Sequence record: NC_134264.1
Origin: Escherichia phage Lindwurm
DNA length: 64,000 bases
Direction: 5' to 3' (one strand)
The translations under genes were made by a program, and so were the position numbers. Position 1 is the stretch's first letter, and each line of letters starts with the position of its first letter. Positions 57,466-64,000 of the stretch are shown here, piece after piece. The notes beneath the pieces were generated by a model. The model had not been told where the DNA came from. It did not search any database and was given only the letters and a program-made list of their open reading frames with translations.

Positions 57466-59136
57466 ATGATTATTTCCGCAGAAAAACAAACCGTTATCCT
57501 GAAAATGGCCGCTGATTTCAATTTCTACGGTAAACGCCTGCGCGCCACTAAATTGGAAGTTTGTGACGATATTTCGAAAGCGGTATACGATACTACTAAA
57601 CACTCCACCGCTATCTGCGACTGGCTGGAAGCAAATAAACCAGCGAAACCAAAAGTAGCAAAAGTAGCAAAAGCCATTAAAAACGATGAGCGCCCCGAAG
57701 CGGCTGGGATTGTTTCTAGTACCGTGGAACAGTGGGAAGTAAAACAAGGTAAACGTTTTATTATTACGTCGATTCAGAATAATACTTTCCCGCATAAAAA
57801 CTTTTTAGCCTCACTGGAGCAATTTGCTAAATATATCGGCGCTGATTTGCTTGTTTCTAAGTATATTTATAATAAAAACGGCTTTCAAAATGGGGAAGGT
57901 GCCGACGGAATCATATTTGATTCCGTGTTTGATAAATATATTTGCAGCAAAAACGTGTTTTTGAATAACCGCCGTTTCGCTTTCATGGCTGAAATTAATG
58001 TTTTGCCCACCGCAGATTATCCGCTTTCAGGATTCGCAGAAACTGCAACGGCTTTAAATATTGAGGGGCTGGCAATTGGTCACGCTAAAATTACCGCTGA
58101 AAGCGTGCCAGCTTTAAAAGGTGAAGTAGTGCGCCGTATGTATTCAACCGGAACGGCAACACTCAAAAACTACATTCAGCAGAAAGCAGGACAGAAAGCG
58201 GAAGCACTTCATAATTTTGGTGCGCTGATTGTCGAGTTTGACGATGATGGTGAGTTTTTTGTTCGCCAGCTTGAAACAATGGACGAAAGCGGCATGTTTT
58301 ACGATTTGAATATTTGCGCCACTCCTTCAGGATGTTTTGAAACGTCGGGGCATGTTTTAGGCTTGCAGTATGGCGATATTCATGCAGAAAAACTAGATGA
58401 GGCTTGCGCTCAAGCGTCTTGGGGTCATGGGGATACTTATGGGCTTGTGGATATTCTCAAACCAAAATATCAGTTTGTACATGATGTGCATGATTTTACA
58501 TCCCGCAATCACCATAACCGCGCATCCGGTGTATTCCTAGCGAAACAGTATGCCGCCGGACGTGATAAGGTTATTGATGATCTTATCGATACGGGTCGCG
58601 TGCTGGAATCGATGGAACGTGATTTTAGTCAAACGATCATTGTCGAATCGAATCACGATTTGGCGCTATCCCGTTGGCTTGATGATCGTAATGCTAACAT
58701 TAAGGACGATCCCGCAAACGCGGAACTATATCACCGCCTGAATGCGGCTATTTACGCGGCAATCGGTGAACACGACGAAACGTTTAACGTGCTAGATTAT
58801 GCGCTGCGCAAGGTTGCAGGTTGTGAATTTAACGCCATTTTCCTGACAACTGACCAATCGTTTAAAATTGCAGGCATTGAATGCGGCGTACACGGTCACA
58901 ACGGCATTAACGGCAGTCGTGGCAATCCTAAGCAGTTTAAGAAACTGGGTAAATTGAACACGGGGCACACCCATACCGCTAGCATTTATGGCGGCGTATA
59001 TACCGCTGGCGTAGCTGGTAGTCTGGATATGGGTTACAACGTTGGCGCGTCAAGCTGGACGCAGACGCATTTAATTACCTATGCAAACGGTCAGCGCACT
59101 TTGATTGACTTTAAGAATGGTAAATTCTTTGCGTAA
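57466..59136 (+). CDS. A1: A1-like pre-early protein with metallophosphoesterase motifs
   Basis: 556 aa (size of T5 A1); GDIH and VHDVHD blocks. Confidence 0.65.
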   Translation: MIISAEKQTVILKMAADFNFYGKRLRATKLEVCDDISKAVYDTTKHSTAICDWLEANKPAKPKVAKVAKAIKNDERPEAAGIVSSTVEQWEVKQGKRFIITSIQNNTFPHKNFLASLEQFAKYIGADLLVSKYIYNKNGFQNGEGADGIIFDSVFDKYICSKNVFLNNRRFAFMAEINVLPTADYPLSGFAETATALNIEGLAIGHAKITAESVPALKGEVVRRMYSTGTATLKNYIQQKAGQKAEALHNFGALIVEFDDDGEFFVRQLETMDESGMFYDLNICATPSGCFETSGHVLGLQYGDIHAEKLDEACAQASWGHGDTYGLVDILKPKYQFVHDVHDFTSRNHHNRASGVFLAKQYAAGRDKVIDDLIDTGRVLESMERDFSQTIIVESNHDLALSRWLDDRNANIKDDPANAELYHRLNAAIYAAIGEHDETFNVLDYALRKVAGCEFNAIFLTTDQSFKIAGIECGVHGHNGINGSRGNPKQFKKLGKLNTGHTHTASIYGGVYTAGVAGSLDMGYNVGASSWTQTHLITYANGQRTLIDFKNGKFFA

Positions 59137-59203
59137 TTAAATTGATAAGCTGGGAATATTCCCAGCTTAAATACCTTATTAAATTAATTGGAGTTTTATA
59201 GAT

Positions 59204-59596
59204 ATGAAAAAGCAAAATATTCCATTCGATCGCGCTCAGTCCTCAATTGTTCTAGTTTATTCTAATGGCGAACGTTACCACGTCGAGGCGGGGCACGTTA
59301 TTGATGAATTATTAGATTTCAATGATGCGATGCAGGTTACAACATTTGCATATATGCAGGGCAAACTAACCAGCCATATTAAAGCAAAAGGCGTTTATGT
59401 TGACACGATGAAACAAGAAACAATCATTATTGACGCAGTAAAATCCGGCCTAGCCTTTGCAGTTGTCGCGCCTTGCCCCGCTTGCCTTGATGATCAATTG
59501 ATTTCTGCAAAAGTATATACTTGTGCGGGGATTCGTTCCAGCGTATCCGGCGAAGATATTAGTTTTATCGCTGATGCGTTGGCTTATGGTCTTTAA
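59204..59596 (+). CDS. hypothetical protein
   Basis: 130-aa ORF with TTGGAGTTTTA RBS context. Confidence 0.5.
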   Translation: MKKQNIPFDRAQSSIVLVYSNGERYHVEAGHVIDELLDFNDAMQVTTFAYMQGKLTSHIKAKGVYVDTMKQETIIIDAVKSGLAFAVVAPCPACLDDQLISAKVYTCAGIRSSVSGEDISFIADALAYGL

Positions 59597-59676
59597 TAGT
59601 TGATTTATTATTACCCGCTTATAAATAGCGGGTAATGCTGGATAAACTAAATCCCTTTAATGGAGAACGTAACAAA

Positions 59677-60411
59677 ATGAATCAAGTTAAAACGAATATT
59701 ACCCGTAATTTCCCGCATATTTCCCGCGTCATGATTTGGGATCTGGACGGCACTATCATTAATTCTTTCCATCGTGTAGCGCCTTGCTTTGATAGCGAGG
59801 GCAATTTAGATTTAAATAAGTATAAAAATGAGGCTTGCAAACATCATTTAATAATGCAAGATACCTTATTGCCATTAGTTGAATATATGCGCCAGTGCAT
59901 GAATGATGCAAATACTTTAAACGTTATTTGTACCGCTCGACTGATGAGCAAGTCAGACTATTATTTCTTGCGCAAACAAGGCTTGCGCGGTCGTGATAAA
60001 AGCAATATCCGTGTATTTTCCCGCGATACACTACACAAGTATTTTGAGGCTGATAAAGTTAGCGAGATATACCACAGCAAAGACGCAGTATACAAATCTT
60101 ATTATTTTGAATTATTTAAACAGCTATATCCGAACGCTGATTTCACAATGATTGATGATCATAAAGGTGTGCTATCAGCGGCGGCGTCATACGGATTTAA
60201 AACGCTGGACGCACAAGCCGTTAACGATATTCTATCAATCGGCGTGGCATTGATAGGCGGAACCTTTATTGATGAATCTCTCGATGATGATAATGATTAT
60301 CAGTTCCTAGCTGACCGATTGAAATTATGTTGGGAAAGTATGACCGAGGAAGAACGCGCAGAATATAGTTGCAGCCCTCAACAATATATTGAGAAATTAA
60401 AAGTTGCGTAA
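59677..60411 (+). CDS. dmp: HAD-family 5'-deoxynucleotidase (Dmp-like)
   Basis: 244 aa from ATG 59677; WDLDGTII HAD motif; RBS context AATCCCTTTAATGGAG shared with A1. Confidence 0.6.
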   Translation: MNQVKTNITRNFPHISRVMIWDLDGTIINSFHRVAPCFDSEGNLDLNKYKNEACKHHLIMQDTLLPLVEYMRQCMNDANTLNVICTARLMSKSDYYFLRKQGLRGRDKSNIRVFSRDTLHKYFEADKVSEIYHSKDAVYKSYYFELFKQLYPNADFTMIDDHKGVLSAAASYGFKTLDAQAVNDILSIGVALIGGTFIDESLDDDNDYQFLADRLKLCWESMTEEERAEYSCSPQQYIEKLKVA

Positions 60412-60568: not shown

Positions 60569-60778
60569 CTATTTACGGACTGACTGCCTGAGAATGGACT
60601 GCCATAGAGGGTCAGTCTTAACAAGATTATTGATGTACTCAATAGCTTCATCAAATCTCATAAATCCTTCTGGGATTTCCGAAGACTTAGGAAAAACTGA
60701 GAGCATCTCCTGGGTGAGACCTCTCTTTTCAATTTCTTCCTTAGTTAATTTAAACTGCTCATAGTTATTCTTCACCAC
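60569..60778 (-). CDS. hypothetical protein
   Basis: 69-aa ORF. Confidence 0.4.
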   Translation of the reverse strand: MVKNNYEQFKLTKEEIEKRGLTQEMLSVFPKSSEIPEGFMRFDEAIEYINNLVKTDPLWQSILRQSVRK

Positions 60779-60989
60779 TCACCTTAGCCCGAAATCTCTT
60801 CCGCGACGCCCGAGATCCATCCGACCACTCCCGCTCAAACTCCGCACGTTTCTCGTCAAACTTCCGCTCCCTTTCCGCAATCTCCCGCGTCACCCCCGCA
60901 ATATATTCCCGATGCTTGTTAATTGCCGCAGTCGTCCCGAAAACTCCCGCGAGTATCCCGATAATAAAAGCAATTATAATACTAAACAT
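60765..60989 (-). CDS. small membrane protein
   Basis: 74 aa, N-terminal TM helix. Confidence 0.4.
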   Translation of the reverse strand: MFSIIIAFIIGILAGVFGTTAAINKHREYIAGVTREIAERERKFDEKRAEFEREWSDGSRASRKRFRAKVSGEE

Positions 60990-61398
60990 TATTTATATTC
61001 CCGCAACTTACGTTCAATACGAGCTAAGTGGTTATCCAAGACACACTGCCCTAGAATTACCACAACTAATAAAACAATAATTATTACTCCCATTAAATCC
61101 ACCCCGCCATAGCTGCTAACCAAAAACCTACGAAGATTAGGAATAATACAAAACCAAATCCGTAAATATTAATCCACGCTTCGTACACTTCTCCGCGTCT
61201 GTTCTTTCTTTTATTTGACATATCTTTCGTGCCCCCGTAAATGTGGTATTTTAAAATATTTTATAATTTGTGCATAACCAACCATGCTTGTGACTTCCTA
61301 GAAGGACTTCTACTTTTCTTACATAGTGGTTTCTGCCAATATACCATCCAAGAAATAAAAAATTTAGTTTACTTGGATGTCTTTTTGCTTTATACTAA

Positions 61399-61665
61399 TT
61401 ACAGGTAGTTAGATTGCTCTAGTTTAAATTTACAATCACCATATTTAAGGTCAAACTGACTGAGATCCCACCACCCAAACTTAGTACGGAGCTGTACTAC
61501 TGGGAAGCGATCTCCCTTAATACGAACTTTTTGAACCTTGAGACCGTAATGTTCTTCTCCCGCACCACCAAAAGATTTTACAAATCCCGTGCAAAATGGT
61601 TTGGGAGCAGGTGCACAACCAGATAACATAACTGCGGCAACTAGTGCAATAACAAACTTTTTCAT
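61399..61665 (-). CDS. llp: lipoprotein (Llp-like receptor-blocking lipoprotein)
   Basis: Lipobox MKKFVIALVAAVMLSGC; divergent from and adjacent to receptor-binding protein gene. Confidence 0.55.
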   Translation of the reverse strand: MKKFVIALVAAVMLSGCAPAPKPFCTGFVKSFGGAGEEHYGLKVQKVRIKGDRFPVVQLRTKFGWWDLSQFDLKYGDCKFKLEQSNYL

Positions 61666-61750
61666 ATTTATCTCTCCATTTCTAATTTATGAATCTATTA
61701 TAGCAAAATAGAGGGATGAAAGCAAATACATTTTTATAATAGGAGATTAT

Positions 61751-63508
61751 ATGGGTTTTTTCGCTGGAAAATATAGCGATGGTAAGACCGTACTATCTTT
61801 AAATACTGAATCTGGTGGTGACATTAATCGTCACTATAGTCCAAATAATAATAGTATTTTTCATAGTGATATGCCATTTGTCCTAGTTGATGGTACTTAT
61901 GAGGCTGGGTTAGGCGATGCCGGAAATGGGTTTTTTGTATGTCAGATGCCCTCTGACATAATAAATATTAAATCTAATGACCCAGGTAGAGTTATACTAA
62001 CTGCCATTGAGATTAATGGTACTCATAGGGCTTTTCTTAATGGTACTCAGAGTAAGGTGGGTCAAACTATAGTTGCCACTCAAGCAGACCCCTTTAGATC
62101 TTTTGCTAGCGTTTCCCAGACTAGTGGATTTGCATTTGGTAATAGCCTGGCATCTGGAACATATAACTATAACTCATCTATAGGTCATGAAGAATCTATC
62201 TCTAGAAACGGTACTGGTGGAACCACCCTACATAGCACTTATCATGGTATAGTTAGGCCAGGTGCAGGAGCTCCAGTAGGTATTACTGTTGCAGAAGCTT
62301 TTGCACAGCTGGGTTTTCCTACTAATAGTAGTACAGTACCCATAGATGGTAATAACCAATATTACTGGGACCCAGGATGGATGTCTCCTTTAGGATCAGC
62401 ATACAGAGGACACGATTGGTTTTATGTTTGTAGCTCTAACATACGTGGGTATGGTGGAGTAAGACAAGGTCTTCCTGGTAATGTAAACACTATGTATCAT
62501 GATGGGGGTAATAGATTTGTTTGTAGGGGTTCTACAACCAATTTAGCTAATCAATCTGGTAATGCTACAATATTACAGGATTGGTATAACATAACTCCTA
62601 CTAAGGTTATTTGGTACGTTTTGAATTTAAGATATTCTAATGGTAATATGGGTATCTCTGGTAATCCTTTTACTGGTTCAGATATTCTTATCTCTCCCTC
62701 TAATTTTACTATAAAAGGGGTTAGTCTTCCTAATACTGGGTATAAGTTTATTAACCAGAATGCTTTTGGTAACTTAGGTTATAGGCCAGATATGGAATAC
62801 GTCGGAAATAACGCAGCGTACACTGGAGCCTTCGGAGATACCACTGCAAGGTGTGAACTTGTAGGCTCTAGTAATGGAAGTTTATGGTCTCCTGTAGACT
62901 ATGGAGGGGCTAAGTCTCAAATTAGTATTTACAAATTCGGAGCAGGTAAGCAATGGTACGTAAACTCAAGTAATAACACTATTGGTAACGAACATGGTAT
63001 TGTTTGGGGGCCTTCTTCAGTTCCTCTGAGACTTTTTAGTGGAAATGTTGGTAGTTCTTACATGGGGGATGATATTACTCCTTACTATCCAGGAACTGGA
63101 GATAGATATGTGGCTTTATCTACTATTGGACTAGGAATTCCAGGAGGTAATGCTACCATTATTCTTACTACTGAAGTTATATCTGGTAATCTTAATTGTG
63201 CTGGTGTTCCAGCTAATACATGGAATAACGGTGTATTTCAGGTGCAGGGAAGAAGGGCTTATATCTATAGTAATGGAGATGCAATATTCCACCAGATTTT
63301 AACATTACCTGTAGGTTACTTAGTACCCTTTCATACTACATCTGCATTTAGATACACACCTAATAATGCACTAAGTAGAAATAGTTTCATATATACAGTT
63401 AAAAATCTAGGAAATGGAAATGTAGAGTTAGGGGTAGTTATGCACGTAAGTTTAGGTAGTGCAGTTTTCCTACCTAGATTAAGAGTAACAGTTCAACGCC
63501 TTACCTAA
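61751..63508 (+). CDS. oad: receptor-binding tail protein (pb5/Oad-like)
   Basis: 585-aa Gly/Asn/Ser/Thr-rich protein next to divergent lipoprotein gene; AGGAGA RBS. Confidence 0.5.
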
Positions 63509-63518
63509 AGGAGGAAAT

Positions 63519-64000
63519 ATGGCAAATGATGTATTAGTACCAGATCTTATGTCCCCTGAAGGGATGGATGTAATTGAAGCTTATTTACAGTGTGGCAGCG
63601 ATGTGCCTTCTGCCGCACGTAGTCTTGGGATGTCCGAAATTGCCTTCCGAGATATTATGAATCGTAGTGAAGTTAAGAACTACTTAAATGATATTTTTAT
63701 GGAGAGTGGATTCCGTAACAGAGATCGTTTGTTTGGTGTTCTAGATGAAGTTATCAAGCGTAAGCTGGAGGAACTAGAAGAAACCGGCATGGGTTCTGAC
63801 CAGGATATTATGGACATTCTCTGGAAGGCACACAAGATGAAGATGGAAGAAATGAAAATGATGGTAGAACTGGAGAAAGTGAAGGCAGCAGCCCGTACTC
63901 CAGCCAATCAGACCAACATCCAGAATAATATTATTGCTGGAGCTGGGGATCAAAACTACATGGACTTAATTACTTCCCTAGCTACTGGAGGTAAGAAGTA
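63519..64000 (+). CDS. terminase small subunit-like protein, N-terminal part
   Basis: AAGGAGG RBS; HTH-like region then coiled coil; runs off window end. Confidence 0.4.

Follow-up and report, generated by a model that had tools for sequence, protein, structure and literature searches.

The locus near the end of the window, which here denotes the whole stretch of 64,000 nucleotides of Escherichia phage Lindwurm (NC_134264.1) that was analyzed, raises the question of which outer-membrane protein of the host is recognized by this phage and whether the lipoprotein encoded next to its tail-tip gene blocks that receptor. The original prediction described a divergent gene pair, encoding an 88-aa lipoprotein with the lipobox LSGC and a 585-aa Gly/Asn-rich protein, likened it to the llp-oad pair of T5 and proposed a receptor other than FhuA. 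The analysis reported here leads us to read the pair as a module of a T5-like phage that comprises a BtuB-binding tail-tip protein and an Llp that blocks BtuB, a reading to which we assign a probability of roughly 90%. The identity of the genes, their family membership, the synteny, and the promoter motif were established from the sequences, whereas BtuB specificity and the exclusion phenotype are carried over from published experiments on identical or 95–99% identical proteins.

Organization of the Locus

Both genes and the gap between their start codons (Table 1) were confirmed in the list of open reading frames and in the sequence, and a composition count of the large product (Gly 13.3%, Asn 9.4%, Ser 9.4%) agrees with its description as Gly/Asn-rich. 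The gene order llp(−), oad(+), terS(+) is common to the window, T5, BF23, DT57C, and AKFV33, and terS is annotated at the same position in AKFV33, BF23, and DT57C. The synteny with T5 and BF23 includes small transmembrane ORFs and llp on one strand, a gap of 79–85 bp, and, in the opposite orientation, oad/hrs, terS, and terL; together with the full-length alignment of the large protein to T5 pb5, it bears out the proposed likeness to T5. In 115 phage records, DNA matches extend over 80% or more of the 2.3-kb region, near-identical copies of the module are present in more than 100 sequenced phages, and at the protein level the large protein is found in 523 records and the lipoprotein in 399. 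T5-like phages carry hundreds of conserved homologues of both genes, arranged alike, and neither ORF is therefore a chance occurrence. The window derives from a Tequintavirus (T5-like siphovirus) in which this locus is the host-recognition module, and the llp-oad pair is an ordinary module already described in the literature (2006–2021).

Table 1. Features of the llp-oad locus in the window (position 1 is the first nucleotide of the window).
Feature	Coordinates	Strand	Basis
llp, 88-aa precursor of the receptor-blocking lipoprotein (superinfection exclusion / lytic conversion)	61399..61665	-	ORF list; BF23, AKFV33, and Cit2 proteins 100% identical
Signal peptide (aa 1–16) and lipobox Cys17 codon (LSG/C); Ala at +2 of the mature protein	61615..61665	-	Pfam LPAM_1 and sequence
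Gap separating the divergent start codons, 85 bp	61666..61750		Sequence
Shine-Dalgarno GGAGAG for llp	61672..61677	-	Read off sequence
Candidate llp promoter: −35 TTGCTT, 61725..61720; spacer of 17 nt with TGC at its end (extended −10); −10 TATAAT, 61702..61697	61697..61725	-	Pattern match
Shine-Dalgarno AGGAG for the receptor-binding gene	61741..61745	+	Read off sequence
oad/hrs, 585-aa tail-tip protein for receptor binding; pb5 family, BtuB clade, AKFV33-type allele	61751..63508	+	PHROG 4815; PDB 8b14_B, 8a8c_B
Small terminase subunit gene (terS), start; runs past the window end	63520..64000	+	ATG 11 nt after oad stop; AGGAGG before ATG

The closest relative is the orf158/orf159 locus of phage vB_EcoS_AKFV33 (HQ665011; PMC3326045), with 97.4% identity in DNA across the 2.3 kb, identical Llp and gap sequences, a promoter annotated at the same place, and a receptor-binding protein that differs by eight substitutions. 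Outside this locus, the window shares only about 89–95% identity with any phage of the collection; therefore, the phage is a different isolate or a species-level variant with respect to AKFV33. BF23 (genome OR083247) shares the gene order, the BtuB clade, and the Llp at 100% identity, and its llp and terS flanks are 96–98% identical in DNA, but its Hrs has 595 aa and is only 66–68% identical to the 585-aa protein of the window. At the DNA level, identity to BF23 falls to 50–77% over most of the receptor-binding gene (one 100-bp bin reaches 90%) and returns to 97% at terS, a profile indicating that, relative to BF23, the allele of this gene has been replaced between the gap on one side and terS on the other. 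The hrs-llp module of BF23 was reportedly described by Mondigler et al. in 2006.

The Intergenic Gap and Its Promoter

The 85-bp gap had been proposed as a control region shared by both genes, and this holds for llp, toward which a recognizable promoter is directed. A pattern search of the gap revealed a site that fits the T5 early-promoter consensus TTGCTT-N17-TATAATA; the equivalent site of AKFV33 is annotated as matching the “T5 promoter consensus TTGCTT (N17-18) TATAATA”. The gap, which is exactly that of AKFV33, differs at one to three positions from those of Bas32, Cit2, DT57C, and BF23 (three in BF23), and the motif is kept in seven relatives, among them these four phages and T5, whose otherwise diverged 79-bp gap contains TTGCTT-N17-TATAAT. 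A generic scan of positions 61000–64000 for promoters and terminators detected no terminator and, within the gap, no promoter; it overlooked that of llp because the −35 element there fits the generic scanner at only three of six positions. For the large gene the proposal of a shared control region did not hold, as neither the generic scan nor the pattern search found a consensus promoter for it in the gap. A plus-strand TATAAT at 61735–61740 was considered for this gene and rejected: it lies immediately next to the ribosome-binding site, and T5 and JLBYU43 lack it.

The Lipoprotein and Its Mode of Action

The N-terminus of the 88-aa lipoprotein (MKKFVIALVAAVMLSGC) contains the lipobox L-S-G-C at residues 14–17, which makes Cys17 the lipidated residue and leaves a mature protein of 72 aa, and residues 1–18 match Pfam LPAM_1 above its cut-off (E 5e-5). 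According to the +2 rule of the Lol system, lipoproteins without Asp at position +2 are sorted to the outer membrane. With Ala at this position, Llp would be expected on the inner leaflet of the outer membrane, facing the periplasm.

The protein is 100% identical to the BF23 “receptor blocking protein” and to its counterparts in AKFV33 and Cit2, and it is 98.9% identical to the Llp of DT57C, from which it differs by one residue, and to that of the BASEL phage IrisVonRoten (Bas32). In the presence of cloned DT57C Llp, BF23 and DT57C showed a more than 100-fold drop in plating and T5 was unaffected, and for BF23 Llp an exclusion of more than 10^6-fold has been reported (PMC4728585). The “receptor blocking protein” annotated in S124 was discarded as a FepA-type comparator, being a 103-aa ORF without a signal peptide or lipobox.

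How such a protein would block BtuB is suggested by analogy with T5, where the crystal structure of Llp bound to FhuA shows the periplasmic plug occupied and the extracellular loops EL7 and EL8 allosterically closed (PMC9586334). By this analogy, the lipoprotein would attach to BtuB at the plug and the periplasmic face and thereby hold extracellular loops in a conformation to which the tail-tip protein is unable to bind. Alternatively, it may be an unrelated lipoprotein that blocks BtuB otherwise than T5 Llp blocks FhuA, e.g., by cell-surface action or steric masking. This alternative, which we regard as unlikely, draws on the low pairwise identity of the two proteins (25–27%, with a large share falling in the signal peptide) and on the fact that a direct comparison of profiles does not prove them homologous: hhalign with mature-only alignments of the BF23-type proteins, with or without Cor, against the T5-type was not significant; the window Llp and a three-sequence profile, used as queries against PDB sequences, gave chance-level matches only and did not recover T5 Llp, which is present in the PDB; and Foldseek with the window Llp returned no match. 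The homologue search yielded 11 clusters, all 58–99% identical, with no bridge to Cor or T5 Llp; therefore, the alignment available to AF2 was shallow. The best fold match of the resulting AF2 model is T5 Llp, although the model may be unreliable, AF2 being inaccurate for T5 Llp itself (PMC9586334), and the BF23-type and T5 Llp proteins were termed non-homologous in older literature (PMC4728585; PMC10644984).

Several observations argue against an unrelated protein and for the T5-like mode of action. Both Llp proteins belong to PHROG 1119, to which the window Llp matches with residues 1–82 over profile positions 1–78 (E 1.8e-26), and T5 Llp (E 1.1e-19) and a T1-like Cor (E 8.6e-29) also match at full length. 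A transitive link is formed by the match of the window Llp to the T1-like Cor (E 3e-12) and of that Cor to T5 Llp in the PDB (E 0.027). All three proteins have a lipobox and two Cys residues at equivalent positions; in the window Llp these are Cys25 and Cys78 (residues 9 and 62 of the mature protein), which align with the pairs of T5 and the T1-like phage “grams”, are invariant in the 11 homologue clusters, and may form a disulphide like that between Cys11 and Cys58 of T5 Llp (PMC9586334). In addition, the gene lies at the same position behind the same promoter as in T5, and the absence of Asp at +2 predicts a site that faces the periplasm.

The window Llp is 34–39% identical to the “grams” member of the Cor lipoproteins, which are found in T1-like and lambdoid phages; the “grams” cor gene adjoins receptor-recognition genes, downstream of that for a J-like tail protein. 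The classical Cor proteins (T1, phi80, N15) block FhuA. Hence, where RefSeq labels BF23-type Llp as “Cor superinfection exclusion protein”, a family is named and not a target.

The Receptor-Binding Protein

Residues 1–585 of the large protein match positions 1–650 of PHROG 4815 (E 3.4e-272), and a full-length alignment was obtained with T5 pb5 of solved structure (PDB 8b14_B, 8a8c_B; E 4e-47, about 30% identity) and with BF23 Hrs. Because the sequence matches solved pb5, membership in the pb5/Hrs family, for which alignment had been proposed as the check, is settled. PDB entries 8A8C and 8B14 are those of FhuA-pb5, and 8A60 and 7QJF those of Llp. The conserved termini of the family are present, with an N-terminus of the M-x-FFAGK type and the C-terminus VTVQRLT; the FFAG start is common to T5, slur09, and S124, and all proteins compared end in QRLT or QRLA.

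The exact 585-aa sequence was not found in sequence records. Its relatives are AKFV33 orf158 (98.6% identical), Cit2 (95.4%), Bas32 (95.2%, with 28 substitutions scattered along the sequence), and DT57C, which carries a third allele (73%), followed by BF23 Hrs. In a pairwise matrix, the proteins of the window, AKFV33, JLBYU43, Cit2, Bas32, DT57C, BF23, and phiR2-01 are 56–99% mutually identical, whereas the window protein is 32–36% identical to the FhuA-type proteins of T5 and slur09 and 32% identical to the FepA-type protein of S124. It thus clusters with phages of an experimentally BtuB-dependent type, apart from the FhuA and FepA clusters.

Two parts of the protein, at about 151–270 in the center and about 481–570 near the C-terminus, are only 33–60% identical to BF23 Hrs. 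T5 pb5, about 30–32% identical, is 55 aa longer, and the residues missing from the window protein belong mainly to the center and the vicinity of the C-terminus, which are the loop regions of T5 pb5; there, the loops that enter FhuA have their tips at Gln115 and Phe170, and L4 is located at 570–590.

Receptor Specificity

The evidence points to BtuB as the receptor. Bas32 is listed in the BASEL collection with BtuB as its terminal receptor on E. coli K-12 (S5 Table; PMC8594841), the BtuB dependence of DT57C was demonstrated with btuB mutants (PMC4728585), and BF23 and phiR2-01 are also BtuB phages (PMC10644984). Membership in this clade, the receptor of the 95%-identical Bas32 protein, and the identity of the lipoprotein to the BtuB-blocking Llp of BF23 agree with the earlier expectation of a receptor other than FhuA, the receptor of T5. 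The argument first offered for that expectation, the length of 585 aa against about 640 aa in T5 pb5, fares less well: length alone is a weak guide, with BtuB-type proteins of 585–595 aa and a FepA-type S124 protein of about 637 aa, but the roughly 55 missing residues do fall mainly in regions that contact the receptor. The host of JLBYU43 had been considered as an fhuA-deletion host; it is actually a pstSCAB-phoU deletion strain and hence uninformative.

Recognition of FepA or of another, undescribed outer-membrane protein despite the clustering with BtuB-type proteins is very improbable. It could be entertained on the grounds that the two parts diverged from BF23 Hrs lie where T5 pb5 has its receptor-contact loops, but DT57C, which has diverged equally from BF23 in the same regions, experimentally uses BtuB; Bas32, with its scattered substitutions, is listed as BtuB-dependent; identity to the FepA-type protein of S124 amounts to only 32%; and the BtuB-blocking Llp has been kept at 100% identity. 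Least credible is the use of FhuA as in T5, with a “decoupled” BF23-type lipoprotein that blocks a receptor the phage does not use: FhuA was proposed for Cit2, whose Llp is identical and whose receptor-binding protein is 95.4% identical to those of the window, in a paper that reports the Cit2 protein as 96.9% identical to “T5 (NC_005859)” (PMC12980165), but BLASTP of the Cit2 protein against the pb5 of NC_005859 gives 30% and not 96.9%, Cit2 and BtuB-listed Bas32 share 98.1% identity in their receptor-binding proteins, the values in the same paper of 30.8% to FhuA-type S131 and 67–73% to BtuB binders are the pattern of a BtuB-type protein, and the window protein is itself only distantly similar to the pb5 of T5 and slur09. 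As judged from the recomputed protein identities, the published FhuA inference for the Cit2 allele does not survive.

With BtuB as the receptor, the module would operate as follows. The pb5 protein (Oad in T5, Hrs in BF23) would occupy the tip of the straight central fibre, and its irreversible binding to a TonB-dependent transporter of the outer membrane, which for the AKFV33-type allele would be the vitamin B12 transporter BtuB, would lead to ejection of the DNA. The strong sigma-70 promoter of the gap would drive synthesis of Llp early in infection; after export and lipidation at Cys17, Llp would be sorted to the outer membrane and, in its inner leaflet, inactivate BtuB as a phage receptor, probably by jamming the plug from the periplasmic side as T5 Llp does in FhuA. 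Blocked BtuB would prevent superinfection and the loss of progeny on the debris of lysed cells.

Implications for T5-like Phages

As a discovery, the finding has little weight, as the module, the receptor class, and the exclusion function are already in the literature; the recomputed identities that overturn the FhuA inference for Cit2, and the prediction that the fold of BF23-type Llp is closest to that of T5 Llp, are of some use. Its value is one of annotation: the need of this phage for BtuB is predictable, and loss of btuB is the expected route to resistance. The predicted exclusion of other BtuB-using T5-like phages is relevant to the design of phage cocktails.

A further idea, which we consider improbable, is that the AKFV33-type allele docks on BtuB through other contacts, tolerates BtuB variants (Salmonella, Citrobacter, O157) that the BF23-type cannot, or uses a second receptor. 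Docking could differ because the cassette has been swapped between an invariant llp and terS and the counterparts of the pb5 loops are so diverged from BF23 Hrs. If this were the case, the unchanged Llp would still protect the infected cell by acting on the conserved periplasmic face of BtuB, and the family would represent a natural series for one receptor bound in several ways.

Locus Layout and Phage Identity

The two genes are divergently transcribed from start codons 85 bp apart, as originally described, and this arrangement is confirmed both by the list of ORFs and by the raw DNA. Both are preceded by a good Shine-Dalgarno sequence as read from the DNA, and the L-S-G-C lipobox of the 88-aa lipoprotein, Llp, gives a Pfam LPAM_1 match above the cut-off. 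The ORFs are not due to chance, because the 2.3-kb locus matches 232 phage records by DNA, and in 115 of these the match covers 80% or more of the locus. The best matches are all Tequintavirus or Epseptimavirus (T5-like), and the nearest is vB_EcoS_AKFV33 (97.4% identity), whose record labels the counterpart genes "receptor-binding tail protein" and "receptor-blocking protein."

Features of the locus and its flanks (window coordinates)
Feature	Position	Strand	Details
A1, A2 and dmp (T5 pre-early genes)	57466-60411 and ~60500		A1, 556 aa; dmp, 5'-deoxyribonucleotidase
Four small overlapping ORFs downstream of llp	60569-61221	minus	69, 74, 44, 42 aa; same strand as llp
llp, 88-aa lipoprotein ORF	61399..61665	minus	protein start MKKFVIALVAAVMLSGC
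Gap between the two start codons	61666..61750		85 bp
llp promoter, predicted	in gap	minus	TTGCTT-(17 nt ending TGC)-TATAATA, then 24 nt with GGAGAG, then ATG
TATTATA, reads as a -10 hexamer both ways	61696-61702	both	TATAAT (llp, minus); TATTAT (plus)
Receptor-binding ORF, 585 aa	61751..63508	plus	Gly 13.3%, Asn 9.4%, Ser 9.4%

The small terminase subunit gene terS lies downstream of the locus, and small membrane ORFs followed by pre-early dmp, A2 and A1 lie upstream; the gene order is identical in T5 (AY543070) and BF23 (OR083247). The four small ORFs hold the position of T5.159-162, which encode single-transmembrane proteins, and of their BF23 counterparts. In T5 and BF23, the pre-early genes are located inside the ~10-kb terminal repeat, whose border separates dmp from the small membrane ORFs, so that the window spans the junction of unique sequence and terminal repeat.

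Since the last 24 kb of the window show at most ~89-95% identity to any phage in the collection, and an exact-protein database look-up found no record of the 585-aa sequence, the phage is judged to be a new variant, at isolate level, of a kind of phage already known.

Family and Receptor of the Receptor-Binding Protein

The 585-aa protein gives an end-to-end match to PHROG 4815 ("receptor binding tail protein"; E 3e-272) and also matches the solved T5 pb5 chains 8b14_B and 8a8c_B (E 4e-47); tblastn aligns it with T5 pb5 over its full length at ~30% identity. Together with the shared gene order, these matches bear out the proposed resemblance to T5 llp-oad. In an alignment of ten receptor-binding proteins, three groups were distinguished. 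The window protein falls in the BtuB-type group (56-99% identity among members) with AKFV33 (98.6% identity to the window protein), JLBYU43 (96.6%), Cit2 (95.4%), Bas32 (95.2%), DT57C (73%), BF23 (68%) and phiR2-01 (56%); its identity is only 32-36% to the FhuA-type proteins of T5 and slur09 and 32% to the FepA-type protein of S124. BtuB is given as the terminal receptor of Bas32 (IrisVonRoten) on E. coli K-12 (BASEL S5 Table, PMC8594841), the need of DT57C for BtuB was established with btuB mutants that were selected and then sequenced (PMC4728585), and BF23 and phiR2-01 are also BtuB phages (PMC10644984). Three clusters of T5-like receptor-binding proteins are likewise described in BASEL, where the cluster predicts the receptor. 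Because the window protein groups with proteins of phages with published BtuB use, BtuB is most likely the receptor, in keeping with the suggestion that it might be other than FhuA.

Use of FhuA has been proposed for Cit2, together with a "decoupling" of receptor-binding protein and Llp, from a reported 96.9% identity to "T5 (NC_005859)" (PMC12980165). The receptor-binding gene of Citrobacter phage Cit2 (comparison locus L006, OP745948.1, 758-2515) carries the same allele as the window, beside an identical Llp; however, its product recomputes to 30% identity with T5 pb5 (locus L013, NC_005859, 528-2450) and to 98.1% with the protein of BtuB-dependent Bas32, which makes FhuA use highly improbable. 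On these identities, the decoupling would most simply reflect a mistaken reference sequence, and the published receptor assignment of Cit2 looks wrong.

Allele Structure

DNA identity between the window and BF23 is 96-98% over llp, falls to 50-77% over the greater part of the receptor-binding gene (a single 100-bp bin reaches 90%) and returns to 97% at terS, the same cassette-like mosaic as in DT57C (Golomidova et al., PMC4728585). Protein conservation relative to BF23 is lowest at residues ~151-270 and 481-570. With HMMER, only residues 1-162 and 270-532 were aligned to T5 pb5, and most of the 55 residues by which the two proteins differ in length fall in the central and C-terminal parts left unaligned. 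These parts coincide with the T5 pb5 loops that enter FhuA (tips Gln115 and Phe170; L4, residues 570-590; PMC9586334), and the difference therefore maps to receptor-contact regions; thus, the length cited as a clue to the receptor has a structural counterpart, although length alone identifies no receptor. It seems unlikely that the diverged receptor-contact segments of the AKFV33-type allele confer different BtuB docking or a wider range of receptor variants while a frozen Llp keeps acting on the conserved periplasmic face.

Control Region

The sequence of the predicted llp promoter is that of the published T5 promoter consensus, and the AKFV33 record annotates the same site. The motif is kept in the gaps of BF23, DT57C, Bas32, Cit2 and T5, and in T5 it is still present although the surrounding coding sequences are otherwise unrelated to the window at the DNA level. 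In T5, the receptor-binding gene belongs to the late class. A promoter scan of 61000-64000 found no convincing sigma-70-type promoter for this gene; in the T5 and BF23 records, its predicted promoter overlaps both the llp promoter and the 5' end of llp. The TATTATA sequence is conserved in all relatives compared, including T5. A control region shared by both genes, as first supposed, is thus plausible but only half demonstrated, on the llp side.

The Llp Lipoprotein

Llp has the same sequence as the BF23 "receptor blocking protein" (100% identity), as do the AKFV33 and Cit2 proteins; those of DT57C and Bas32 differ at one residue, in the signal peptide. Its function is known, since exclusion experiments used an identical protein: BF23 Llp is reported to give >10^6-fold exclusion (Mondigler et al., as cited in PMC4728585). 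Cloned DT57C llp lowered the plating of BF23 and DT57C-group phages >100-fold and left T5 unaffected (PMC4728585).

A search of 5.8 billion proteins indicated a narrow BF23-type family of 11 clusters, all 58-99% identical. Many Epseptimavirus genomes carry a second BtuB-type allele, 68% identical; JLBYU43 (comparison locus L004, 251-517) has it too, alongside an AKFV33-type receptor-binding protein (601-2358). The two alleles have identical C-terminal halves (QLRTKFGWWDLSQFDLKYGDCKFKLEQS, 28 residues) and differ only in their N-terminal halves, which points to recombination within llp or to a strongly constrained receptor-contact segment.

The "receptor blocking protein, T5 Llp-like" of the FepA-type Salmonella phage S124 (locus L012, NC_048013, 1719-2030, minus strand) is a 103-aa ORF without signal peptide or lipobox, unrelated to both Llp types; this annotation is doubtful, and trees built with the ORF are therefore unreliable.

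The T1-like phage "grams" (locus L003, NC_049825, 6001-6228) encodes a Cor-type lipoprotein of 75 aa that resembles BF23-type Llp (34-39% identity) more closely than T5 Llp does, and the gene for it adjoins receptor-recognition genes downstream of a J-like tail protein. This Cor may block BtuB, because some Hanrivervirus phages, e.g., Bas06, depend on BtuB (BASEL S5 Table, PMC8594841). Chain D of PDB 9rps, an 82-aa "Phage lipoprotein," was weakly matched by a three-sequence Llp profile in the signal-peptide region only (E 0.96) and could represent the structure of a further phage exclusion lipoprotein.

Host-Recognition Module and Receptor Blocking

Every in silico-testable defining feature of an oad/hrs-llp module was found, apart from direct homology of BF23-type and T5-type Llp, for which hhalign of the mature sequences gave no significant match. 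Judged by sequence, the locus is a T5-like oad/hrs-llp host-recognition module combining an AKFV33-type BtuB receptor-binding allele with BF23 Llp; such modules are already known.

T5 Llp, a periplasmic outer-membrane lipoprotein, binds the FhuA plug in a non-native conformation, with Llp residues Ile39-Trp46 taking the place of the FhuA switch helix, and makes the extracellular loops EL7 and EL8 fold inward to cover the site where pb5 binds (PMC9586334). The hhalign result and a Foldseek search with Llp, which found no match, count against the same mechanism for BF23-type Llp. In its favor, PHROG 1119, the Llp/Cor exclusion family, is matched full-length by window Llp, T5 Llp and a T1-like Cor, all three of which have the lipobox and two Cys at equivalent positions; that Cor matches window Llp at E 3e-12 and PDB T5 Llp at E 0.027; and LRTKFGWW, invariant in BtuB-type Llp, aligns with Ile39-Trp46. 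By analogy, the chance that BF23-type Llp works through a T5-like periplasmic mechanism is put at about two in three; the authors of the T5 study propose that this mechanism extends to other TonB-dependent transporters (PMC9586334).
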